A DNA stretch of 37,980 nt, from IMG/VR virus record IMGVR_UViG_3300014537_000008; one strand, written 5' to 3'. Of this stretch, positions 1,308 through 24,853 are shown piece after piece. The first letter of the stretch is position 1, and every line of letters begins with the position of its first letter. Source of the stretch: a virus. A model generated the notes under the pieces. It was given only the letters and a program-made list of their open reading frames with translations. It made no database searches and was not told the origin of the DNA. The position numbers were made by a program, and so were the translations under genes.

Positions 1308-1334
1308 AAAAAAAAGAACGCCTTTTAGGCGTCC
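1308..1334 (-). terminator. rho-independent terminator for the minus-strand XRE gene (AACGCC/GGCGT hairpin; 8-T run on the minus strand)
   Basis: Hairpin encloses the XRE stop codon; A8 on plus equals T8 on minus. Confidence 0.6.
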
Positions 1335-1516
1335 TCTTCCATCCCTGCCAGCTGATCCAGCGATACATCTAGCGCCCTAGCTAGTTTTACGGCAATAGAT
1401 AACATACAGTCCCCGCGCTTTTCGATATCCTGAATAGTGCGGCGGGGAACGCCAGATAGTTCCACAAGTTTCGGGACAGATAGTCCCTTTTCAAGCCTGA
1501 TCTCTCGTAGTTTCAT
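1325..1516 (-). CDS. XRE-family HTH transcriptional regulator (Cro/CI-type, 63 aa)
   Basis: LSVPKLVELSGVPRRTIQDIEKG is a classic HTH_3; GGAAG RBS. Confidence 0.8.
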   Translation of the reverse strand: MKLREIRLEKGLSVPKLVELSGVPRRTIQDIEKRGDCMLSIAVKLARALDVSLDQLAGMEEDA

Positions 1517-1667
1517 GGCGGCTCTTCCTTTCGACGATAAGATTCAAAATTAGGCAAACCGCAAGGAGAGCAATATTAATCCAGCCCAACGCACCGTTTG
1601 GCCAACCATCAATAAGGTGGAGGACGACGAGCGCGATTAGAATAATGGTAATAAAGTTTCTCTTCAT
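1491..1667 (-). CDS. possible 58-aa two-TM membrane protein (MKRNFITIILIALVVLHLIDGWPNGALGWINIALLAVCLILNL...); no clear RBS and overlaps the XRE start by 26 nt
   Basis: ORF found by reverse-complement translation; below the 60-aa track cut-off. Confidence 0.2.
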   Translation of the reverse strand: MKRNFITIILIALVVLHLIDGWPNGALGWINIALLAVCLILNLIVERKSRHETTRDQA

Positions 1668-1725: not shown

Positions 1726-1854
1726 TTACTTCCCCTTCTTCTTGGACTTGGCTTTCCGCTTTAGGAGCTTCTTTATCAGTGTGATGGCTGTGAGGCTCAG
1801 GACTGCGGTTTCGGCCAGGTCCTTTATGATGGCGACTATATCTTGCCAGTGCAT
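1726..1854 (-). CDS. 42-aa membrane peptide MHWQDIVAIIKDLAETAVLSLTAITLIKKLLKRKAKSKKKGK (one TM plus a poly-Lys/Arg tail); toxin-like or holin-like
   Basis: AGGAGGA RBS 8 nt upstream; consensus promoter with operator just upstream; hairpin just downstream; hidden inside the low-complexity 77-aa track ORF 1664..1897. Confidence 0.45.
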   Translation of the reverse strand: MHWQDIVAIIKDLAETAVLSLTAITLIKKLLKRKAKSKKKGK

Positions 1855-2705: not shown

Positions 2706-4047
2706 GCGAAAACGATCTATCCCTTTTCGCTTCTCGGAAAAACACAAGGAGTACATTCGTCGATGCGCATTTAACGCTTATAATGTCGCAGAGGGTGCCG
2801 TTCGTGCGGGAAAAACAGTGGATAATGTTTTTGCTTTTGCTCATGATCTCAAAACGACGCCCGATAGAATCCATTTGGCTACAGGCTCCACGATGGCGAA
2901 TGCAAAGCTTAACATTGGAGATGCAAACGGTTTTGGGCTTGAGTATATTTTTAGGGGACAATGCAATTGGGGTAAGTATAAAGATAATGAGGCATTGTTT
3001 GTTAAGGGGCCTGACACTAAAAATCGGCAAAAGATTGTAATCTTTGCGGGAGCCGCGAAAGAGGACAGTTATAAAAAAATTCGAGGCAATTCCTACGGGA
3101 TGTGGATTGCAACGGAGATCAATCTGCATCACGACAACATGATTAAAGAGGCGTTCAATCGGCAGCTGGCCGCCAACCGGCCTAAGGTTTTCTGGGATCT
3201 GAATCCAGATAACCCTAAAGCTGCAATTTATTCCCAGTATATTGACAAGTACAAGGACCAGGCGGAGGCGGGAAATTTCCCAGGTGGTTACAACTACATG
3301 CACTGTACCATTTACGACAATATTAATATTACGCCGGAACGGCTGCATGAGATTGAGAGCCGCTATGATAAAAACAGTATCTGGTATCTACGGGACATCA
3401 AGGGGCAGAGGATCGTTGCAAATGGGCTGATTTATCGGCGCTTTGCGGATGATACCAGCACAAAGCAATTTACCTATCGACTTGAGGATAAGCCAAAAGA
3501 CATCGCCGAAATCGTTCTGGGGATTGACTTTGGCGGGAACGGTTCTGGACATTCTTTTACAGCGACCGCGATTACGCGGGGATTCCAAAATGTCATTGTA
3601 TTGGCGTCGGAATGGATCAGCTGCCACGAGGAGGAGATTGACCCGGAGGAGCTTGGAAAACGTTTTTGTAATTTCGTGCAAAAAATCTTGAGCCGATACG
3701 GTTATATCACAATCGTTTACGCAGATAGTGAAGCGCAAACCCTGATTGTTGGAATTCGGAGTAGCCTGCGCAAGCATGGTCTGGGCTGGATTCGGGTAGA
3801 CAACGCTCTAAAAACCACGGTCAATGACCGAATCGATGCTACAGCCATCTTGATGGCACAAGGACGCTTTTATTATGTCGGAAACGACTGTCAAAGCCTG
3901 GTGAATGCGCTTTGCACGGCGGTTTGGAATCCCAAAGAGGTCACAAAAAATGAGCGATTGGATGACGGCACAAGCGATATTGACAGCTTGGACAGCTTCG
4001 AATATACCTTTGAACGTTATATCAGTCGCTTAATCAAATATGGATGA
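2686..4047 (+). CDS. terL: terminase large subunit, PBSX (XtmB) family
   Basis: Walker A GAVRAGKT; ATPase/nuclease layout; 453 aa; overlaps terS. Confidence 0.85.
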   Translation: MRFMGVKRKRSIPFRFSEKHKEYIRRCAFNAYNVAEGAVRAGKTVDNVFAFAHDLKTTPDRIHLATGSTMANAKLNIGDANGFGLEYIFRGQCNWGKYKDNEALFVKGPDTKNRQKIVIFAGAAKEDSYKKIRGNSYGMWIATEINLHHDNMIKEAFNRQLAANRPKVFWDLNPDNPKAAIYSQYIDKYKDQAEAGNFPGGYNYMHCTIYDNINITPERLHEIESRYDKNSIWYLRDIKGQRIVANGLIYRRFADDTSTKQFTYRLEDKPKDIAEIVLGIDFGGNGSGHSFTATAITRGFQNVIVLASEWISCHEEEIDPEELGKRFCNFVQKILSRYGYITIVYADSEAQTLIVGIRSSLRKHGLGWIRVDNALKTTVNDRIDATAILMAQGRFYYVGNDCQSLVNALCTAVWNPKEVTKNERLDDGTSDIDSLDSFEYTFERYISRLIKYG

Positions 4048-5504
4048 GAGGTGGTGAGATATTGACTTATACAAAAATGCTCTTGATGATCCAAAAAGCA
4101 CTGCAACATACGACTATTGACTGGTGTTTATCATCAGAAATGGCTAATCAAATTGATCTATGGACGCGAATGTTTGAGAATCGAGCCCCCTGGTTGAGTA
4201 AAACAGTTGAGAGTGCGGGGCTGTCAGCTGCAATCGCGAGTGAAGTGGCCCGACTAATCACGTTGGAACTAGTAACAGAGGTCTCTGGGTCTGCTAGGGC
4301 AACATATATCAACGATGCGTATCAAAAGACGGTCAAAAAATTACGACAATATGTAGAGTATGGTTGCGCAAAAGGCGGATTGATCTTTAAGCCTTATTAT
4401 ACGCATGATGGGATTGACGTGCAAATGTTGCAGGCGGATAGCTTTTTCCCGGTCACTTTTGATGGATCGGGGGCAATCTCGCAGTGTATCTTTCTGGAAC
4501 AGTTTCGGATTGGCAATAAGATTTATAGCCGCATTGAGATGCACACTTTGCAGGGTACAAAGTTGATCATCGAGAATCATGTTTTTGTGAGTACAAACGA
4601 TTTTAGCCTTGGTAGTGAGATTCCGATTACGTCGGTGAAACGGTGGCGGGATATTGCGCAGAGCCTTGTGGTTGACGGTGTGACACGGTTGCCCTTCGGA
4701 TATTTTAAATTTCCGCTGGCCAATACACGGGATTCAGACAGCCCACTGGGCGTATCGGTGTACTCTCGGGCGATTGGGTTGATCCGAGAGGCGGATCGGC
4801 GGTACAGTCAAATTAACTGGGAATACGAGGCTAAAGAAGCTGCCGTCCATGCTGCAACTAGCATGATGCGATATAATCCGGATACGGATAAATTCGAATA
4901 CCCAGGAGGCAAAGATCGTCTATATCGGACCGTCGAAGTCAACAGCGGGGCCACCGAGAAGCCGTTGCTGGAAGAGTACTCACCCGATATTCGGGATGCT
5001 TCGCTGTATAATGGCTGGAATCAGCAAATGCGGATGATCGAATTTAATTGTGGACTGGCCTATGGTACGCTGTCCGATCCAAACAACGTAGATAAAACGG
5101 CAGAGGAAATTCGTTCCAGCAAACAGCGATCCTATCAAATGATTTCCGACGCGCAGGGGGCCTTGCAAAATGCGCTTGAGGACCTGATCGAGGCAATTGA
5201 TTTTTATTGCACACTCTATGACTTGGCCCCTGCCGGGCGATATGCTACATCGTTTAAGTGGGATGACTCCATTATTACAGATACAAATGCAATAGTTGAC
5301 ACTAACATCAAATTAACACAAGCCAGTTTACGGTCTAAACTTAGAGCTATCATGGAAATCAATCGATGCAGCGAGGAGGATGCACAGTTGGAATTGGATC
5401 GGATCGCAGGGGAGGGACAAATCACGGGACAAGATATAGATTGGACAGAGGGCGATAAAGAAGAGGCTACAGATGAATCCACTGATGAATCAGACGGCAG
5501 CTGA
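4044..5504 (+). CDS. portal protein (SPP1 gp6-like); alternative starts at TTG 4062 or ATG 4077
   Basis: 486 aa, acidic C-terminus, position after TerL; ATGA overlap with the terL stop. Confidence 0.8.
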   Translation: MRGGEILTYTKMLLMIQKALQHTTIDWCLSSEMANQIDLWTRMFENRAPWLSKTVESAGLSAAIASEVARLITLELVTEVSGSARATYINDAYQKTVKKLRQYVEYGCAKGGLIFKPYYTHDGIDVQMLQADSFFPVTFDGSGAISQCIFLEQFRIGNKIYSRIEMHTLQGTKLIIENHVFVSTNDFSLGSEIPITSVKRWRDIAQSLVVDGVTRLPFGYFKFPLANTRDSDSPLGVSVYSRAIGLIREADRRYSQINWEYEAKEAAVHAATSMMRYNPDTDKFEYPGGKDRLYRTVEVNSGATEKPLLEEYSPDIRDASLYNGWNQQMRMIEFNCGLAYGTLSDPNNVDKTAEEIRSSKQRSYQMISDAQGALQNALEDLIEAIDFYCTLYDLAPAGRYATSFKWDDSIITDTNAIVDTNIKLTQASLRSKLRAIMEINRCSEEDAQLELDRIAGEGQITGQDIDWTEGDKEEATDESTDESDGS

Positions 5505-6732
5505 TGCTACGACAGGGCTCTATCAAGATTTAGAAGAGCGTTTGATGATGAATATCATTCGGCACTGCAAAGACTACAATCAGCCAATCGCTTCGGATGT
5601 ATGGCTAATGCGCAAACTGGCCGAAATTGGAAAGCTCAACCAGGAGAACCTCAAGATTATTGCGGACACGGCTGGATTGTCGCAGACTGTGCTAGAACGC
5701 ATGTTAGACGCTACGGCGCAGGAAGCGATTGCGGAAATGGAACCCGGAATGCAAAAGCTTGCTAGGCAAGGGCTCGCAGGTGAGGCGATTTCGGCCGAAA
5801 AAAGTAAGAATATCAAGCAGACCATGAAGGGTCTCCAAAACCAGGCGCAGAGCACTTTGAATCTCTGTAATACCACAATGCTGTACAAAGCAAAATCTGC
5901 GTATGAAAAGTTTGTGCAGGCAGTCGCCACATCAGCGGATGAAATCTCAAATAAGCAGTCATTTTTGGATCGCCTGGGGCATCATGCATCAGCATCCGTA
6001 GTGGGGGCTGAGTCGCGACAACAGGCAATGCGCAAATGCATCAAGGATTTCAATGAGCGCGGAATTCCGGCGTTTGTGGATAAAAGAGGGCGCGAGTGGA
6101 CGCCAGAGGCATATGTCAATATGGCGCTGCGAAATACGGTTAAAAACGTAGCAGATGAAGTTCAAACAGCACGTTGCATAGACTATGATATTCGACTGAT
6201 TGAGATTGATTCTCACTCTGGCGCTCGGCCGAAATGCGCAAAGGATCAAGGCAAAATCTACAGTTTGGACAACAAAAGTGGGTATACAACGGATGCATCC
6301 GGAAAAAAAGTTCGATATTATCCTTGGAATAGCACCAGCTATGGGGAGCCGGATGGCATCCTGGGAATCAACTGCACACATCACAAATGGCCTTTTGTTC
6401 CTGGAGTATCTATGCGGACATATTTCCCGGTTGATGATCAGGCGGCTAGCGACAGATTGTATAAAGAGACGCAGGTACAACGAGCCCTTGAGCGAGATGT
6501 TCGCAAGCAAAAACGAGAGTGCATGTTGCATGATCAAATTGGAGATAAGGAGGCATTTGAAAATGCTGCTGTCACCTTGAAGCAGAAGGAAACTAAGCTG
6601 AAACAATATGTTGACGGAAATCCGGATTTGCACCGTCGTAAGGATCGGGAACAGGTAGTTGGATTTGATAAGCGGATTAGCGCTCAAGCAGTGGCAGCGA
6701 ACAAAAAACATTTGACCGGGCCGAAGTCGTAA
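5473..6732 (+). CDS. minor head / head morphogenesis protein (SPP1 gp7 / Mu F-like)
   Basis: Position after the portal; 419 aa; conserved mid-region typical of Phage_Mu_F. Confidence 0.7.
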   Translation: MNPLMNQTAADATTGLYQDLEERLMMNIIRHCKDYNQPIASDVWLMRKLAEIGKLNQENLKIIADTAGLSQTVLERMLDATAQEAIAEMEPGMQKLARQGLAGEAISAEKSKNIKQTMKGLQNQAQSTLNLCNTTMLYKAKSAYEKFVQAVATSADEISNKQSFLDRLGHHASASVVGAESRQQAMRKCIKDFNERGIPAFVDKRGREWTPEAYVNMALRNTVKNVADEVQTARCIDYDIRLIEIDSHSGARPKCAKDQGKIYSLDNKSGYTTDASGKKVRYYPWNSTSYGEPDGILGINCTHHKWPFVPGVSMRTYFPVDDQAASDRLYKETQVQRALERDVRKQKRECMLHDQIGDKEAFENAAVTLKQKETKLKQYVDGNPDLHRRKDREQVVGFDKRISAQAVAANKKHLTGPKS

Positions 6733-19065: not shown

Positions 19066-19347
19066 ATGGATTTTGGATTTTTGGCTGAATACCTACAGCC
19101 GGAGACAATCGCCGTTGCGGTAGGGCTGTATGTGTTGGGAATGATCCTGAAAGGATCAAAAAAGGTGATGGACTGGATCATACCCTTTGTGTTGCTAGGG
19201 TTTGGCATCGTACTATGTATCGCAATCTATGTGATACAGACACCAGGTCCAGAGGCAATCATACAGGGGTTTTTGCAAGGCGTTTTTGCAACAGGCAGTG
19301 CGGTGTTGGTCAATCAGCTGTACAAGCAGGCACAAAAGGGGGAATAA
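19066..19347 (+). CDS. holin (three TM)
   Basis: 93 aa, hydrophobic segments, charged C-terminus, directly upstream of the endolysin. Confidence 0.7.
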   Translation: MDFGFLAEYLQPETIAVAVGLYVLGMILKGSKKVMDWIIPFVLLGFGIVLCIAIYVIQTPGPEAIIQGFLQGVFATGSAVLVNQLYKQAQKGE

Positions 19348-19350
19348 CAT

Positions 19351-20367
19351 ATGGCATATAAAATTTGTCTCGATGCGGGGCACTACGGACAGTACAACCA
19401 GTCTCCGGTGGTGCCAGAATACTACGAATCGGAGATGACCTGGAAACTCCATCTGCTACTCAAGGCTGAGTTGGAAAAGTACGGGTTCGAGGTCAAGACC
19501 ACAAGAGCGGACCAGACAAAAGATATGGATGTGTACTATCGAGGATACGCGGCTCAAAACTGTGATCTATTTTTGAGTTTGCATAGCAACGCGGCAGACA
19601 GCGAGTCCGCAGACTATGTAGTAGCCTATCGCGCCTACGACAATAAAAACAACGCTGATACGCTAGGATTGGCACTCGCTCAAAAAGTGGCAGACATCAT
19701 GGGGACAAAGCAAAATCCCCGAACCGCTACTCGCAAAAACAGCTCCGGCAATGAGTGGTATGGCGTGATGCGTGGTGCAAGAGCCGCAGGATGCAAACTG
19801 TATTACATCCTGGAGCACTCATTCCATACCAACGCAGCGGCCACACAATTTTTGATGCAAGACGCCAATCTGCAAAAACTAGCAGAGGCAGAGGCAGCAA
19901 TAATCGCAAATTATTTTGGAGTAACGGCATCAGCAACCGAGTCAAAACCATCCGCATCCTCTCAAAAGCCGGCTGTATCCGGCCATATCGCAGATGTGCA
20001 GCGCTGGCTTAACAAAGAGTACGGCTTTGCCCTAGAGGTAGACAACAGCGCAGGGCCCTTGACCTGGACGGCGCTGCGAAAAGCCCTTCAAATGGAGATC
20101 AACCGGCAGAGCGGAGCAAGCCTAGAGATTGACGGGAGTATTGGCCCGAAGACAAAAACGGCGATCATCTACACAAAGCGCGGAACAAAAGGCAATATCA
20201 CAAAGCTGGTTCAGGCGGCGCTGTATTGCAAGGGCTACGATCCAAATGGCCTAGACGGCAGCTTCGGGCCAGGTATGGAGGCCGCAGTGCGCAAGTATCA
20301 GGCGGATCATGGATTGACGGTAGATGGTATGGCTGGACGAGAGACGCAGGTTAGTTTGTTTAGATAA
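19351..20367 (+). CDS. endolysin: N-acetylmuramoyl-L-alanine amidase (Amidase_3) with two C-terminal PG_binding_1 repeats
   Basis: KICLDAGHYG...LSLHSNAA amidase motifs; two LDGxFGPxTxxAVxxYQ peptidoglycan-binding repeats. Confidence 0.85.
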   Translation: MAYKICLDAGHYGQYNQSPVVPEYYESEMTWKLHLLLKAELEKYGFEVKTTRADQTKDMDVYYRGYAAQNCDLFLSLHSNAADSESADYVVAYRAYDNKNNADTLGLALAQKVADIMGTKQNPRTATRKNSSGNEWYGVMRGARAAGCKLYYILEHSFHTNAAATQFLMQDANLQKLAEAEAAIIANYFGVTASATESKPSASSQKPAVSGHIADVQRWLNKEYGFALEVDNSAGPLTWTALRKALQMEINRQSGASLEIDGSIGPKTKTAIIYTKRGTKGNITKLVQAALYCKGYDPNGLDGSFGPGMEAAVRKYQADHGLTVDGMAGRETQVSLFR

Positions 20368-20378
20368 GGGGGGATACC

Positions 20379-21206
20379 ATGCAAATAGCACGGGTATTTC
20401 CGCGGCGTACAAAGGCAACACCCGATGATGCCTTGGTCTTTACCGGCCCGCCTCCGAAAGACGGGCTACCCGATGTCGACGAAGTACATGTGTCGGTAGC
20501 CTTTACCTATGACCTGCCCAAAGCGTATGATTTAGCAGAACGCTGGGCTAAAACAGGCATTAATGTACGGATCGGCGGCCCGGCATTTGACTCCCCAGGC
20601 GGTGATTTTGTCCCAGGAAGATATCTTAAACAGGGCTACGTTGTCACATCTCGTGGTTGCCCAAACCGATGTCCTCATTGTGCTGTGCCCAAACGAGAAG
20701 GATACACGTTGCGGGAACTACCAATCACAGAAGGGTGGAATGTGCTGGACGACAATTTGTTAGCCTGCTCCGATGGACATATCCACGCAGTATTCGACAT
20801 GTTAAAGCGCCAGCCGGAAAAACCAGTATTCACGGGTGGGCTGGAAGCCCGATTGTTGAAACCGTGGCATGTGGAGTTGATCCGTGCGGTCAAAACAAAA
20901 CGTATGTATTTTGCCTATGACTCGCCTGGAGAATACGAACCCCTGGTAGCGGCAGGGCGTCTCTTGCGGGATGGGGGCATTACGCAGGCTTCCCATCGAG
21001 CGGCCTGCTACGTCCTGATCGGCTATAAAGGTGACACAATGGATGCAGCCGACAAACGTTTACGCGATACATGGGCGGCCGGATTTGTGCCATACGCTAT
21101 GTTATACCGGGATCGCGATGGTATAGTAGATTCGGACTGGCGAAAATTTCAGCGCGTTTGGGTACGACCAGAAATTGTTTTAGCGCGACTCAAACAATCA
21201 GTATAA
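20379..21206 (+). CDS. radical-SAM-like protein (CPNRCPHC = CX3CX2C), function unknown; accessory gene after the lysis cassette
   Basis: Single CX3CX2C cluster in a 275-aa ORF; GGGGGGA RBS. Confidence 0.4.
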   Translation: MQIARVFPRRTKATPDDALVFTGPPPKDGLPDVDEVHVSVAFTYDLPKAYDLAERWAKTGINVRIGGPAFDSPGGDFVPGRYLKQGYVVTSRGCPNRCPHCAVPKREGYTLRELPITEGWNVLDDNLLACSDGHIHAVFDMLKRQPEKPVFTGGLEARLLKPWHVELIRAVKTKRMYFAYDSPGEYEPLVAAGRLLRDGGITQASHRAACYVLIGYKGDTMDAADKRLRDTWAAGFVPYAMLYRDRDGIVDSDWRKFQRVWVRPEIVLARLKQSV

Positions 21207-21216
21207 ACAAAACAAC

Positions 21217-21250
21217 AGCCCTCTGGGAGACCAGGGGGCTTATTTTATTC
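21217..21250. terminator. bidirectional rho-independent terminator (10-bp stem AGCCCTCTGG/CCAGGGGGCT, GAGA loop, T-rich on both sides)
   Basis: Read directly; closes the late operon and the convergent minus-strand island. Confidence 0.75.
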
Positions 21251-21413
21251 GGTGAACATATCAGCCTTTACAAACTAAAAGGGAGCCATTAGACTCCCTT
21301 GTTCGCTATCTATGGAGAGGCAGGTCAAAGACCATCTCTCACATGCTTTATTATATGTCCATTTTTTTGTCAATCGAAAATATTTACTACTTTTAGTGTT
21401 CGTCTATCTCGCC

Positions 21414-21659
21414 TTAATATACAGACCAATCACCATAGTATCCAAAGTCCCCAAAATCAATAGGGTCTAGCTCCTCCTCGATCCCATCCCGGCAGCCGCA
21501 CCAGCCCCGAACAGCCACTACATTATCATCTGAATCAAGAATTGTAATGCTGCGTTGCGTGTAGGATGCGCTTTCGTCTGCAACTTCCATCGCCTCTTCA
21601 AGGCTGTCTGCATATCGATTGCCCGCTCCAGTGCCAAAATTGATGTAGTATCTCTCCAT
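21414..21659 (-). CDS. small very acidic hypothetical protein (81 aa)
   Basis: AGGAGGA RBS; high D/E content. Confidence 0.55.
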   Translation of the reverse strand: MERYYINFGTGAGNRYADSLEEAMEVADESASYTQRSITILDSDDNVVAVRGWCGCRDGIEEELDPIDFGDFGYYGDWSVY

Positions 21660-21673
21660 TGTTATATCCTCCT

Positions 21674-21898
21674 TTAAAAAATTTCGTAGTTTGTGATATC
21701 GTAATTGCGGTCTCTAATTTCATCTAAGATTGCTTCTGCGGTTTCTACGTCTACGTCGCCGTTCTCAAATACTTGATGCTGTCTATCATCCTCTGCGGAG
21801 ATATGGACCTGATTGTTGTCTGTGTTTTCAAAGCTCATTGTTCCCGTGTACTCAATTTCATCGTGATCCCATTTGACGTTGATCGTTGTGTTCTCCAT
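21674..21898 (-). CDS. small very acidic hypothetical protein (74 aa)
   Basis: AGGAGGA RBS; high D/E content; first gene behind promoter copy 1. Confidence 0.55.
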   Translation of the reverse strand: MENTTINVKWDHDEIEYTGTMSFENTDNNQVHISAEDDRQHQVFENGDVDVETAEAILDEIRDRNYDITNYEIF

Positions 21899-21946
21899 GT
21901 TGCATTCCTCCTGATATTTTATTTTGCTCCCTCATCTTGTAATCAT

Positions 21947-21975
21947 ATTATACATCAATCGGTCCGATTAGTCAA
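21947..21975 (-). promoter_or_regulatory. consensus promoter TTGACT-17-TATAAT (minus strand) with palindrome AATCGGtCCGATT (21957-21969) in the spacer; copy 1 of 2
   Basis: Exact hexamers and spacing; about 32-bp near-identity with 23421-23452. Confidence 0.6.
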
Positions 21976-22165
21976 GAGGTTTTTTTGATTTTTTTAAAAT
22001 TATTTTGTCGCTGTCAATCCCTAATAATATTTCGCGGTCCTCCGGGGTAATTCCTAGAGATTGCGCCCATGTGTTGGGAATGGTGACTCTATACGTTTTT
22101 GTCGTTTTTCCTGCGCCCCCACCGGCAGATGTGATGATTACTTTGCCCTTTCGAACTTCTTTCAT
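21968..22165 (-). CDS. AbrB/MazE/SpoVT-type swapped-hairpin DNA-binding protein (65 aa)
   Basis: RVTIPNTWAQSLGITPEDREILLGIDSDKIILKK resembles the AbrB-N/MazE fold; AGGAGGA RBS; ATGA overlap with the upstream gene. Confidence 0.5.
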   Translation of the reverse strand: MKEVRKGKVIITSAGGGAGKTTKTYRVTIPNTWAQSLGITPEDREILLGIDSDKIILKKSKKPLD

Positions 22166-23034
22166 TCTTTTTGTCCTCCTGTATAGGGTAGTCTTGACTC
22201 CCTGAGTTTTTGAGTCCAGCTAGCCCAGATATCTGGGTTGTGTGGATCGCCGTCAATCCATGCTATTATATCGCAAATCTCTGAATACGCAGTATAGGTA
22301 ATGTATGCGGTTTTTTGGTTGTGTACATACTGGACGGATTTTGGGTTGACATGCGCGTTTGAATAAAGTATAGCCTCGATTTGATGTACAATATCGACGT
22401 TACCAAAAATTTTTAGGCACAATCCCCGGTACCGCCCATGCCTCGTCCGTCTCTGCGAATACGTCATGCATCCGTGAATCTCAATCCATGCTCGCAAAAA
22501 ATCATGGTAGTCCACGAGCTCTGGAAGACGATGCTGATCCGCGCGCTGCCCATTCCATCCGGTAGTAGATGAGTTTTCGAGTCGGGTCTTGACGACATAT
22601 TCCGTTTTCCCGGATGAGTGGTTTTGCGTATATACCATATTCCCGGTATAGTCGGCTATTCGATCGACATAAAATCTATCAACACAACGTATGACAAATC
22701 TTGATTCCATAACAGTGCCAATGCTCCAAACAATGCCGAGGTCGTAAGCGGACAGATGCCTAAAATCCAATGCGCTTGTATCCTTTTGCAGATATCCAAG
22801 GTATTGCGTCACAGTGCTTTTTGAAAGATTCATACGTTGCGCAATCTCATCTGGAGAGGATCCGGCGCAAAACAGTCGTTGCGCCTCTCGAACGGTTTGT
22901 CCACCAAACTCTATGCCATGAGTGGCGAGTATCTTTTGAACGGTTGTCATACTGCATCCACATGCTTTTGCCGTCCCATGGATACTTCTCAAGCGGGAAT
23001 AAGTCTCTATAACAGCGTTGTCGCTAGGTCTCAT
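22162..23034 (-). CDS. tandem-HTH N-terminal domain protein (290 aa) with a C-terminal region carrying degenerate LAGLIDADG-like motifs (FLRAWIEIHGCM, IAWIDGDPH)
   Basis: Two HTH-like segments near the N-terminus; motif resemblance only; translationally coupled (ATGA) to the acidic 118-aa gene. Confidence 0.4.
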   Translation of the reverse strand: MRPSDNAVIETYSRLRSIHGTAKACGCSMTTVQKILATHGIEFGGQTVREAQRLFCAGSSPDEIAQRMNLSKSTVTQYLGYLQKDTSALDFRHLSAYDLGIVWSIGTVMESRFVIRCVDRFYVDRIADYTGNMVYTQNHSSGKTEYVVKTRLENSSTTGWNGQRADQHRLPELVDYHDFLRAWIEIHGCMTYSQRRTRHGRYRGLCLKIFGNVDIVHQIEAILYSNAHVNPKSVQYVHNQKTAYITYTAYSEICDIIAWIDGDPHNPDIWASWTQKLRESRLPYTGGQKE

Positions 23035-23387
23035 TTTCCAATCACTTCCGCACCTTCAAGGATAATTTCGTCTTCATCGGCTCCATACTCAAAGTCTGTG
23101 CCCTTGATGATAATCGGGGTGCCCCAATAGTGATACTTAGACAATACACGCTCAATTTCTGCGTCAATGTCCTCGTTGCTGTCATCGTCTTCAATGTTCA
23201 GCCGGATGCAACATGTTCCGTCAAGTTCGATTGGATTCTCAGTGTCAAAGGATGAGCAATCATTTTCATAGTCCCAGTCAAAAGAGGGGCGGCACGCGTC
23301 TCCGATCTCATACTGTTCGTCTTCTGTCATCCAGCGGATACCGATGTATTCTACGTTAGCTCTTAGTTCATCATGATTGTATGTCAT
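23031..23387 (-). CDS. very acidic 118-aa protein (about 30 percent D/E); DNA-mimic-like candidate; track ORF extends to 23510
   Basis: GGGAGGA RBS 7 nt before ATG 23387; first gene behind promoter copy 2. Confidence 0.55.
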   Translation of the reverse strand: MTYNHDELRANVEYIGIRWMTEDEQYEIGDACRPSFDWDYENDCSSFDTENPIELDGTCCIRLNIEDDDSNEDIDAEIERVLSKYHYWGTPIIIKGTDFEYGADEDEIILEGAEVIGK

Positions 23388-23421
23388 TTTATTTCCTCCC
23401 TTGATCAACTTTGTAATTAAT

Positions 23422-23450
23422 ATTATACACCAATCGGTCCGATTAGTCAA
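23422..23450 (-). promoter_or_regulatory. consensus promoter TTGACT-17-TATAAT (minus strand) with palindrome AATCGGtCCGATT (23432-23444) in the spacer; copy 2 of 2
   Basis: Exact hexamers and spacing; near-identical to 21947-21975. Confidence 0.6.
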
Positions 23451-23476
23451 GGGGGAAATAAAATTTTTTATTTTTT

Positions 23477-24538
23477 TTAGGATGCATCTCCAAACGTGCC
23501 AGATATGCATTGATCCAGATACTCGCTGATCAACGTTTTTGCGTGTTGTATATAAATTCGATTCAGGCGGTAACTTATCTCATTTTTGTTCTTTTTTGAC
23601 CTCATCCTAATGATGACCAGTTCATTGCATAGATCGTCAATACGCCTCAGCACTGACGATCTGGACGTATGTACAATATCGCACAGCTGTGATGCCGTCA
23701 TATCCTTTTTGCATAGTTGAGTGATGATATCAGTGCTCAATCCATCTCCTATGACATCCAACGCGCTTCTTGCAGTCATATAACTATAGTCAATTGATTC
23801 GCTCAGCGCCGCAATGCAATCATACCCTAATATATAGGCATAAATATTTTGTACGGGTTCGCCCTGTCTCATGACTAGGCGCTTGTTTATCATGGCTACA
23901 GAAAATGTAAATAGCTCTGCGCGGTCTGTGCCGGAACAGATTTTTTTCAAAATGGCCTCATTTTTGATTTTGACAAAATCTTTCGCGACATCGTATCTTT
24001 CTATGTGATTATTTTGGTACGCCTCTATGTATGGTTCCAAACGGTCAAAATACTCTATGAGACTGTCAACCATACTATCAAAATGATAAAACAGGCTTTG
24101 AAAGTCGGTAATGCGCACTCGCGGGACAAGCAGCGCCAGCGCATGACTGATGCTCTCGCTATCGCCATCGATAACGCTGTCAATAGATATTTGATCGCCA
24201 AAATCGGACAAGTAGTAAGTATATATGTATCGCCTAAACTCGACCGAGTTCTTTAGTCTCGCAAAGTATGTTTCTGGCGTGTCGCTAAAAAAATCAAATT
24301 CTGCGTCAAAATAATCCGACATTACAGACGCTCTCCCCATATACAGACAAAATAGCGGATATAGTTTAGGAGGTGGAGCAATGTGCCCGCATAACTCATA
24401 GACGGCCTCATAATCGTTAAAAAATTCGCTTGTCATTCCCACCGCCTGAAACTTTCGCAGGACTGCCTCCCTGTCAAAAAATATGATCGAGTATGTAATC
24501 ATGTCGTAAAAAATACCTGGCGTTTTTCTTATATTCAT
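23477..24538 (-). CDS. transcriptional regulator with a large N-terminal domain of unknown function and a C-terminal winged HTH (ArsR/DeoR-like); track ORF extends to 24613
   Basis: C-terminal LSTDIITQLCKKDMTASQLCDIVHTSRSSVLRRIDDL HTH; AGGAGGGA RBS before ATG 24538; its own promoter TTGATT-17-GATAAT at 24558-24586. Confidence 0.55.
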   Translation of the reverse strand: MNIRKTPGIFYDMITYSIIFFDREAVLRKFQAVGMTSEFFNDYEAVYELCGHIAPPPKLYPLFCLYMGRASVMSDYFDAEFDFFSDTPETYFARLKNSVEFRRYIYTYYLSDFGDQISIDSVIDGDSESISHALALLVPRVRITDFQSLFYHFDSMVDSLIEYFDRLEPYIEAYQNNHIERYDVAKDFVKIKNEAILKKICSGTDRAELFTFSVAMINKRLVMRQGEPVQNIYAYILGYDCIAALSESIDYSYMTARSALDVIGDGLSTDIITQLCKKDMTASQLCDIVHTSRSSVLRRIDDLCNELVIIRMRSKKNKNEISYRLNRIYIQHAKTLISEYLDQCISGTFGDAS

Positions 24539-24557
24539 TCTTGATCCCTCCTGTTTC

Positions 24558-24586
24558 ATTATCATGGATGTCTCTGCGAAAATCAA
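24558..24586 (-). promoter_or_regulatory. promoter TTGATT-17-GATAAT for the wHTH regulator
   Basis: Hexamers and spacing read directly. Confidence 0.4.
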
Positions 24587-24598
24587 CCGGGAATCGAT

Positions 24599-24624
24599 GG
24601 AAAAACCGTCCATGATGGACGGCT
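24599..24624 (-). terminator. rho-independent terminator downstream of int (8-bp perfect palindrome CCGTCCAT/ATGGACGG plus T5 on the minus strand)
   Basis: Read directly. Confidence 0.55.
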
Positions 24625-24853
24625 GCGCGCTTTAGTTTTGCATATTTGAGCCTATGTATTATACTGATTTGGTAGTCACACGCTAGTGACAAATTGTTCT
24701 ACGTGCCGCTGTTTATGCGGGTTTTACGAAGTATAAATTAATAAGCTGTTAATATTTATGTGAATAAAAATTACATAAATTGTTTAAATAAAGGACTTTG
24801 AGGCAAACAAATTCAATCTAAAATAATAAAAAATAATGCCTACTAGCGACAAA

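Follow-up and report, generated by a model that had tools for sequence, protein, structure and literature searches.

The window analysed here is a stretch of 37,980 nt of viral DNA (IMG/VR virus record IMGVR_UViG_3300014537_000008) from a temperate siphophage, and the subject of this study is an island of six minus-strand genes between its lysis genes and its integrase gene. We propose, with slightly better than even confidence, that this island is an accessory region close to the phage attachment site (att) that carries a two-operon, self-repressed anti-defence regulon of uncharacterized protein families, built like the loci of anti-CRISPR (acr) and anti-CRISPR-associated (aca) genes. The genes are designated by the length of their products in amino acids (aa). 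In the acr-aca layout one or more small effector genes are followed by a small DNA-binding regulator in the same operon, and this order is found in the operon g118-g290-g65. The promoters of such operons carry an inverted repeat, which is present as AATCGGTCCGATT in both strong promoters of the island, P1 and P2. A similar layout is seen around homologues of g118, which are followed by small proteins that belong to the HTH_3 family or look like ribbon-helix-helix (RHH) proteins. The proposal is carried by the anatomy of the island, the folds of g65 and g290, the variability of the cargo among related phages and the contexts in which homologues occur.

Two operons behind a duplicated operator-promoter

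All six genes are preceded by GGAGG-type ribosome-binding sites. The features of the island are as follows (coordinates refer to the window):

21272-21300, minus strand: intrinsic terminator 3' of g81 that closes the island transcripts (stem 21300-21279, then TTAGTTTGTA)
21414-21659, minus strand: g81, 81 aa, 22% Asp plus Glu, net charge -13
21674-21898, minus strand: g74, 74 aa, 27% Asp plus Glu, net charge -16, first gene of operon 1 (g74-g81)
21947-21975, minus strand: promoter P1, -35 element TTGACT at 21975-21970, -10 element TATAAT at 21952-21947, palindrome AATCGGTCCGATT at 21957-21969
21968-22165, minus strand: g65, 65 aa, last gene of operon 2 (g118-g290-g65)
22162-23034, minus strand: g290, 290 aa, middle gene of operon 2
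23031-23387, minus strand: g118, 118 aa, 28% Asp plus Glu, net charge -25, first gene of operon 2
23422-23450, minus strand: promoter P2, -35 element TTGACT at 23450-23445, -10 element TATAAT at 23427-23422, palindrome AATCGGTCCGATT at 23432-23444
23477-24538, minus strand: g353, 353 aa

P1 and P2 both have the form TTGACT-17 nt-TATAAT, match the consensus at 11 of 12 positions, and are the two best promoter matches between 21 and 26.5 kb; only five sites in the whole 38-kb window score 11/12 or higher, these two included. They lie in a 50-nt direct repeat (21945-21994 and 23420-23469, 82% identity), whose core ATATTATACA(T/C)CAATCGGTCCGATTAGTCAAG(A/G)GG agrees between the copies at 32 of 34 positions. 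The palindrome covers 13 of the 17 spacer bases in P1 and P2 and lies wholly inside the spacer. It occurs exactly twice in the window, with no further site at up to two mismatches. The first-pass annotation of this DNA, made from the letters alone, had described two near-identical promoters with a shared spacer palindrome, and this is confirmed; its coordinates, the ATGA overlaps at the g118/g290 and g290/g65 junctions and the acidity of the small proteins were likewise reproduced. The stop codon of g65 falls within the -35 element of P1. A palindrome with arms of at least 5 nt is expected in about 3% of random 17-mers, whereas it is present in the spacers of 11 of 12 tabulated cassette promoters and in neither of two control promoters in the window.

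The island DNA had no match in 50,697 phage records. The exact g290 protein was found in 95 blocks of the assembly collection, and all 10 loci among the matches listed carry the same six-gene island and both operators. Two loci of this phage group (loci other than the window are given L numbers), L002 and L003, have immunity helix-turn-helix (HTH) proteins that are only 58% and 34% identical, while their islands, operators included, are 99.8% identical. Phage immunity repressors of the CI/Cro type are unlikely operator binders, since one and the same island accompanies dissimilar immunity modules, and since the palindrome is absent from the switch region. One operator in two strong promoters, identical across phages with differing immunity repressors, agrees with the regulatory logic of its own that had been claimed for the island.

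The transcribed leaders that directly follow the -10 element share the motif ATACATAAG(A/G)TAA in the otherwise unrelated cassettes L030, L011 and L032; the version in the P1 and P2 leaders is ATTACAAGATGAGG. This motif could reflect a preference of the initial transcribed region or be a regulatory RNA motif, as has reportedly been described for Aca2 and Aca1. Searched as a DNA pattern against genomes and metagenomes, it retrieved only unrelated chance promoters, and a search of IMG/VR for the operator-promoter gave nothing.

A third near-consensus promoter on the minus strand, TTGACA-AGCACGTAATAACGTGC-TATACT (1916-1888), has its own 6-4-6 spacer palindrome and belongs to a mini-operon with the following genes:

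1726-1854, minus strand: 42-aa hydrophobic protein with a Lys-rich tail
1491-1667, minus strand: 58-aa membrane protein
1325-1516, minus strand: 63-aa XRE/HTH_3 regulator (Pfam expectation (E) value 1.8e-8)

The promoter of this mini-operon (1325-1916) is designed like those of the island, and its cargo looks more like a moron that is expressed in the lysogen.

Related phages, variable cargo and the probable operator binder

The search for more distant relatives of g353 yielded just two, in L014 (83% identical) and L015 (70% identical). The gene orders in these loci are as follows:

L015: int, g353 homologue, 138-aa gene (other strand), promoter Pa, DUF4160, DUF2442, 63-aa AbrB-like gene, promoter Pb, g74 homologue, terminator, Abi_2, terminator, amidase
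L014: host genes, g353 homologue, 75-aa HTH_3 gene, 138-aa gene, promoter, g74 homologue (start codon ACG), 124-aa gene

The AbrB-like gene of L015 is the homologue of g65 (63 aa, 52% identical) and has the same position as in the window. Both promoter copies of L015 carry another palindrome, ATTCG-TGA-CGAAT (ATTCGTGACGAAT), at the equivalent place in the spacer, and the differences between the two AbrB-like proteins lie in the N-terminal DNA-binding part. Thus L015 has the AbrB gene, two promoter copies and g74, and lacks g290. The fold of g65 is that of SpoVT/AbrB (MazE), with a PF04014 score of 30.4 bits (cutoff 24.7, E 3.7e-7) and an E value of 3e-15 for phrog_2329; the AbrB/MazE-fold protein named in the first-pass annotation was therefore borne out above the curated cutoff. 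Members of this fold class are established binders of palindromes within the promoters of their own genes. Because g65 travels with the duplicated operators, while the other candidates are weakened, we infer that it is the likeliest operator binder, an Aca-like repressor of both P1 and P2. The HTH autoregulator that had been expected was not supported: the component that stays with the duplicated operators is the AbrB-fold protein, and the architecture is kept in L015, from which g290 is absent. Searches with g65 of IMG/VR and, by tblastn, of phages gave nothing.

As an operator binder g353 is weakened, since it does not covary with the operator: in the region of its recognition helix the window is closer to L015, which has a different operator, than to L014, which has the same one. 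The exact AATCGGTCCGATT is also found once in the bacterial flank of the L014 prophage, at 3037-3049, where about 6e-4 chance matches are expected in 9.6 kb. The surrounding region separates an ABC-permease operon from a divergent 783-aa AraC-type gene, and the context of the site is not promoter-like.

The L015 cargo is of a different kind. Its DUF4160-DUF2442 pair (3454-4157) stands under the same type of operator-promoter, and its abortive infection gene Abi_2 (4872-5732) is bracketed by two terminator copies (4644-4690 and 5732-5775) that both match window positions 21193-21246. On the basis of these two arrangements, cassettes appear to be exchanged at the promoter and terminator repeats. 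L014 has a single promoter that is P2-like upstream and P1-like downstream, and operon 2 is missing. This hybrid looks like the expected product of a recombination between P1 and P2 that deleted operon 2. Judged by these alignments, g65-promoter-g74 is a conserved module, and everything besides this module and g353 is exchangeable cargo.

For g353 itself, the homologues in L014 and L015 adjoin the host junction or int while the downstream cargo differs, which indicates that g353 is conserved att-proximal core and not variable cargo. A comparison of related prophages had been suggested as a check for a variable hotspot. The cargo from g353 to the lysis genes proved to be variable, whereas g353 is conserved next to attP/attR in all variants. 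The surroundings of the island are as follows:

19066-19347, plus strand: holin
19351-20367, plus strand: amidase
20379-21206, plus strand: 275-aa radical-SAM-like gene (phrog_9298; CxxxCxxC region at residues 88-122)
21217-21250, plus strand: terminator after the late/lysis genes, hairpin plus T-run (stem given as 21217-21240)
24586-24558, minus strand: g353 promoter, TTGATT-17-GATAAT, conserved in L014 and L015, weaker than P1 and P2
24622-24601, minus strand: hairpin plus T-run, CCGTCCATCATGGACGG TTTTT, between attP and g353, conserved in L014 and L015
24757-24853: attP core region, with the divergence point of L001
24854-25927, minus strand: tyrosine integrase (int)

The plus-strand holin, amidase and 275-aa genes are thus followed by the six minus-strand genes and int. 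The statement that an island on the minus strand is unlike the rest of the genome stands for the six genes and has to be qualified, as int, a 71-aa HTH gene and the mini-operon at 1325-1916 are also on the minus strand. The radical-SAM-like gene stands between the endolysin and the island. Dulem virus 36 (L018, 4970-5755) has a g118 homologue in one row with genes for a ParB_N protein and for a 'PA0069 family radical SAM protein'; the radical-SAM proteins of the window and of Dulem virus 36 have no mutual BLAST similarity.

The sequence of L001, an integrated prophage, departs from that of the window at about 24756-24768, immediately upstream of g353, which places attP between g353 and int. 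With attP at this position, the island is the attR-proximal end of the prophage, located 3' of the lysis genes and reading back towards them. The hairpin at 24622-24601 has few differences from L014 and L015, and these still allow G-U or G-C pairing; its appearance is that of an insulator that would stop transcripts entering from the host side of attR. The winged-HTH regulator with its own promoter that had been assigned to g353 is confirmed with respect to the promoter, while the winged-HTH call has only sub-threshold Pfam matches behind it (E 0.003-0.03, C-terminal). The N-terminal domain of g353 is uncharacterized, and a PDB sequence search and a GTDB genome alignment gave nothing for this protein.

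No terminator is found between g353 and P2. An inverted repeat flanks P2 (23451-23464 and 23386-23399, element 23386-23464, minus strand), and in read-through RNA from g353 the sequence upstream of the -35 element pairs with the Shine-Dalgarno sequence and start codon of g118. This fold has a predicted stability of -29 kcal/mol (z -5.5), and none of 200 shuffled sequences was equally stable. Weaker equivalents, with CCUCUUGAC pairing with GUCAGGAGG, are present at Pb of L015 (4330-4410, z -3.1) and at P1 (21900-21980, z -0.8). According to these folding predictions, the hairpins would allow the first gene of a cassette to be translated only from RNA that was initiated at the promoter of that cassette.

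The slot between the lysis genes and attR is the classic accessory (moron) slot of temperate Firmicutes phages. The island might therefore consist of morons for lysogenic conversion or defence that are expressed from the prophage and act in superinfection exclusion, as a toxin-antitoxin system or in abortive infection, with g65 as an AbrB/MazE-type antitoxin and autorepressor. The location of the island, the presence in the L015 slot of Abi_2 and of DUF4160/DUF2442, the latter under the same kind of promoter, and the similarly built mini-operon with small membrane proteins and an XRE regulator are all in line with this. Moreover, g65 passes the Pfam threshold for MazE_antitoxin and was named a PrlF-type antitoxin by JGI. 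However, g65 has no toxin-like neighbour, which weakens its toxin-antitoxin reading: neither g290 nor g74 matches a toxin family, and g74 is an acidic protein of 74 aa with an isoelectric point of about 4. In addition, g65 consists of the DNA-binding domain only and has no C-terminal tail for toxin binding. There were no meaningful PADLOC matches, and the homologues of g118 and g81 in a phi29-like podophage, beside ArdA in phage Mgbh1 and in acr-aca-like operons fit an attack on the host rather than a protective role for the lysogen. We consider the prophage-expressed alternative unlikely.

The second protein of operon 2 with a DNA-binding fold is g290. Its AlphaFold 2 model (predicted local distance difference test score 92) has two N-terminal HTH motifs followed by a double LAGLIDADG fold at residues of about 90-280. 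Foldseek against the PDB found I-Tsp061I (E 1.7e-8, template modelling score 0.65, target-normalised) and dozens of LAGLIDADG enzymes at a probability of 1.0, among them I-OnuI, I-SmaMI and I-AniI. The description of g290 as a tandem-HTH protein is thus right for the two HTH motifs, and incomplete in that the C-terminal 190 residues have the LAGLIDADG fold. The motifs equivalent to LAGLIDADG are YDLGIVWSIG and FLRAWIEIHG. The positions of the catalytic acids are taken by Ile105 and His187, in agreement with the family consensus, and g290 is therefore probably not a nuclease. The Pfam LAGLIDADG profile has no match in g290, and a PDB sequence search gave nothing significant. The family (phrog_6640) has 164 representatives at E values up to 0.001, which are mostly stand-alone proteins of about 200 aa, some being fused to various HTH types. 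Among 5.8 billion proteins g290 found only itself and no close relatives, its exact sequence being present on at least 53 contigs. It is missing from both L015 and L014. In L032 a family member belongs to an operon whose consensus promoter carries a 7-6-7 palindrome, a context that makes a regulatory role for the family possible. We regard g290 as optional cargo, either a second DNA-binding regulator or a domesticated relative of homing endonucleases.

A variant of the regulon in which g290 takes the place of g65 on the operator, contacting it with the HTH pair, the nuclease-dead LAGLIDADG scaffold or both, and g65 has some other role, has a low probability in our view. It is favoured by the HTH_23 match of g290, which is above the Pfam threshold, by the high-confidence DNA-binding scaffold, by the fusion of family members to many HTH types, and by the L032 operon, where no other regulator is obvious. 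A precedent is PLE CapR, reportedly a domesticated homing endonuclease that acts as a repressor (PMC8096241). On the other hand, L015 has two operator-bearing promoters without a g290 homologue, and g290 lacks close relatives whereas the AbrB-promoter-g74 module is conserved. A perfect 13-bp palindrome also fits a symmetric dimer better than a pseudo-dimeric monomer. A further reading, distinctly improbable, takes g290 for a free-standing homing-endonuclease gene, selfish or in decay, that entered the operon between g118 and g65 and has no role in the island. The LAGLIDADG fold would agree with such an insertion, as would the absence of g290 from the otherwise similar modules of L015 and L014 and the presence of AP2 proteins of the homing-endonuclease type at the same place after g118 homologues in L030 and L031. 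The non-acidic residues I105 and H187, which are shared by the family consensus, the translational coupling to both neighbours by ATGA and the identity of the protein across at least 53 contigs argue against it.

Candidate effectors and their homologues

Seventeen homologues of g118, 35-53% identical, were found in metagenome contigs, GenBank phage records and IMG/VR. Near-consensus promoters with a private palindrome in the spacer precede the g118 homologue as first gene in six further independent loci. The operator palindromes are as follows:

L030: CCACTC-GAT-GAGTGG
L031: GCCCA-A-TGGGC
L034: ATAGCGCACA-A-TGTGCGCTAT
L035 and L036: CATACTTG-CA-CAAGTATG
L040 and L041: GTCGCA-CA-TGCGAC

L037 and L038 have direct-repeat operators in place of palindromes. 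The neighbours of the g118 homologues include HTH_3 proteins in L011, L034 and L042 (supported by Pfam) and in L030 (weak precomputed match only), and small RHH-like proteins in L033 (Pfam matches to ParG/RHH weak and below the cutoff) and in L038 and L044 (by eye only, Pfam finding nothing). AP2-domain proteins follow in L030 and L031 (sub-cutoff Pfam matches), a ParB_N protein is the neighbour in Dulem virus 36, and a polyvalent-protein domain, LPD29, is found in L038. In L034 the operon contains a 61-aa acidic protein with a Pfam match to AcrIC5 (E 1.4e-5, 25.6 bits, below the 27-bit cutoff), and the next gene encodes an HTH_3 protein. L013 is from a phi29-like podophage, and its homologue is one of an array of small genes that adjoins the structural genes. 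A tblastn search of plasmids with g118 gave nothing.

Homologues of g118 also stand near the integrase gene in L019 (Caudoviricetes sp. vir215) and in its IMG/VR relative L043, viruses that were assigned to Methanomassiliicoccales (archaea). With these two loci, the family appears to cross the boundary between bacterial and archaeal viruses.

Eleven residues of g118 are invariant, namely R18, S35, W38, D39, D43, G57, C59, Y87, D104, E107 and V115. In the structural model R18 ends strand 1, T58 and C59 lie in strand 2 and E107 starts strand 5; in the element E105-x-E107, position 105 varies (E, D or P). This arrangement loosely recalls ADP-ribosyltransferases of the R-S-E type. The comparisons considered were OspC3, Tpt1/KptA, PARPs, pertussis and diphtheria toxins and DarT, and the similarity is weak. 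Foldseek of the g118 model against the PDB found nothing significant, and the sequence profile had no match among PDB sequences and ADP-ribosyltransferase families. The conserved polar constellation argues that g118 resembles an enzyme or a protein with a specific ligand site more than a generic DNA mimic. We regard g118 as a candidate enzymatic anti-defence protein that possibly has an ADP-ribosyltransferase-like fold, a lead that is graded as weak.

Although g81 belongs to no Pfam or PHROG family, the contexts of its homologues are informative in phages. In Bacillus phage Mgbh1 the homologue gp6 overlaps the end of gp5 and follows gp4, which is a genuine ArdA (PF07275, E 3e-18), so that a g81 homologue is co-transcribed with ArdA; gp5 is labelled 'ocr-like', a label that is unconfirmed. 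Another homologue lies in an early small-gene array of Clostridium phage Amboise. Homologues are also present on 55 plasmids of the Bacillus cereus group, where the contexts are uninformative. Given the company of its phage homologues, g81 is a candidate anti-defence effector. In L046 (IMG/VR) the homologue is followed by a 60-aa protein that is RHH-like by eye. L051 (2294-2743, IMG/VR) encodes a protein of 149 aa that, judged by eye from the open reading frame translation, seems to join an HTH-like segment at its N-terminus to a domain of the g81 family, an arrangement reminiscent of Acr proteins that contain their own regulatory domain.

For g74 no family match was obtained anywhere. It is the most conserved cargo of the phage group, with homologues of 86% (L014) and 78% (L015) identity directly behind the operator-promoter. 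Beyond this group an IMG/VR search, an alignment to JGI metagenomes and tblastn against phages found no homologue. The idea that g74 and g81 are paralogues was rejected, as the two have no sequence similarity and share a 90% database cluster only through a fused gene call.

In the reading closest to the first-pass annotation, all the acidic proteins, g118 included, would be stoichiometric mimics of DNA like Ocr and ArdA, under an HTH autorepressor. This is improbable, although g74 and g81 may each be mimics: the extreme net charges of -25, -16 and -13, the co-transcription of a g81 homologue with ArdA and the AcrIC5-like acidic protein after a g118 homologue would suit it, but there is no Pfam match to Ocr or ArdA, and the regulator that follows the operator from phage to phage does not belong to the HTH proteins.

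Proposed regulation and comparison with known systems

Within the self-repressed anti-defence regulon, we infer the following course of expression. Upon entry of the DNA, host RNA polymerase with sigma-A would fire the near-consensus promoters P2 and P1. The resulting burst would supply g74, g81 and g118, the last of which is possibly a small enzyme similar to ADP-ribosyltransferases, and these proteins would act on host defence or on other host functions. The last gene of the P2 operon, g65, would yield a dimeric DNA-binding protein of the AbrB/MazE fold, which on accumulation would bind AATCGGTCCGATT in both spacers and block the polymerase. Both operons would thereby be reduced to a low level, and the same state would be expected in the lysogen. 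Read-through RNA, for instance from g353, would remain untranslated because of hairpins in which the sequence upstream of the -35 element pairs with the first gene's ribosome-binding site, and g353 would be a separate, weakly expressed core gene. The duplicated promoter might double as a recombination point for the gain and loss of cassettes.

A more far-reaching version of this proposal appears doubtful to us as a whole. According to this version, g118 would found a family of minimal acidic ADP-ribosyltransferase-like catalytic factors of about 110 aa for anti-defence or host takeover in Firmicutes phages and, apparently, archaeal viruses. Its members would stand under near-consensus promoters with private palindromic operators, and their repressors, drawn from no fewer than three folds (HTH, RHH and AbrB), could replace one another. 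In the present island one AbrB-fold repressor would run two operons, and hairpins would block read-through translation.

The acr-aca-like reading gains from the contexts of homologues, with operator promoters, HTH- or RHH-like regulators, ArdA and a borderline AcrIC5. Several points weigh against it. None of g118, g74, g81, g65, g290 and g353 matches a known Acr, Aca, Ocr or ArdA family in Pfam, PHROGs, PADLOC or NCBIfam, and the AcrIC5 match is below the cutoff and was obtained with an acidic, possibly composition-biased protein. The slot that holds the island is occupied in L015 by defence-type cargo (Abi_2, DUF4160/DUF2442). With regard to the repressor, the covariation of operator and AbrB gene is based on two phages and one deletion derivative, and this derivative, L014, retains the operator without an AbrB gene in its 9.6 kb. 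The operator could also be bound by g290, which is encoded in the P2 operon too and has two HTH motifs and a DNA-binding scaffold; in L032 the LAGLIDADG-like protein is the sole obvious DNA binder of the operon.

The island provides three uncharacterized candidate anti-defence families (g118, g81 and g74) from gut Firmicutes phages, from which, to our knowledge, few Acr or anti-restriction proteins are known. For g118, with its 17 diverse homologues including archaeal-virus records, R18, C59 and E107 are targets for mutation. A consensus promoter with a palindrome in the 17-nt spacer and a conserved leader can serve as a search handle and has already singled out unrelated cassettes. In archaeal viruses anti-defence cargo was found independently of protein homology (PMC11065993), and the promoter design described here may be used in the same way.

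Parts of the island can be compared with several known systems. Like the MazE/PrlF/AbrB antitoxins that repress their own genes, g65 scores above the MazE_antitoxin threshold, but it lacks an adjacent toxin, is reduced to the DNA-binding domain and appears to control effector operons. WhiA consists of a nuclease-dead LAGLIDADG scaffold and an HTH domain. With its HTH motifs and acid-less double LAGLIDADG fold, g290 resembles WhiA and also PLE CapR, reportedly a domesticated homing endonuclease (PMC8096241), in having the architecture of a homing endonuclease turned into a DNA-binding protein. However, the domain order of g290 is the reverse of that in WhiA, with the HTH part at the N-terminus, and there is no sequence relationship to WhiA or CapR.

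With ArdA and Ocr the island proteins share small size, high acidity and a presumed early expression from mobile elements, and a g81 homologue shares an early operon with ArdA; g74, g81 and g118 differ from them in having no Pfam match to either family. AcrIF11 is an anti-CRISPR ADP-ribosyltransferase (PDB 6KYF, 8DWQ; PMC12421852). It has no sequence similarity to g118, which is smaller and far more acidic, and its H-F-H-D set is not reproduced by R18, S35, C59, Y87, D104 and E107 of g118. The similarity between the two is weak and is not recovered by Foldseek.

Canonical acr-aca operons, with autorepression of the Aca1, Aca2 or AcrIIA1 type, have in common with the island a strong promoter with an inverted repeat across its -35/-10 region, effector genes in first place and the repressor gene in last place. 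In contrast to these, the operator of the island lies wholly within the spacer, and its proteins belong to no Acr or Aca family. Regulation of downstream operons is documented for Aca11 and Aca13 (PMC12282945). The closest documented case is Aca14 of Pasteurella multocida, a 66-aa RHH protein encoded last in its operon, which acts through similar inverted repeats on two promoters, its own and that of the operon immediately downstream, and represses both (PMC13551039). The island has the same order of genes and the same duplication of the operator, whereas its putative regulator has the AbrB/MazE swapped-hairpin fold in place of an RHH or HTH fold, and the effectors are unrelated. No AbrB-fold Aca was described in the literature that we searched for AbrB together with anti-CRISPR and Aca. 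If our proposal is true, the AbrB-fold regulator would represent a third Aca fold, after HTH and the recently described RHH fold of Aca14.

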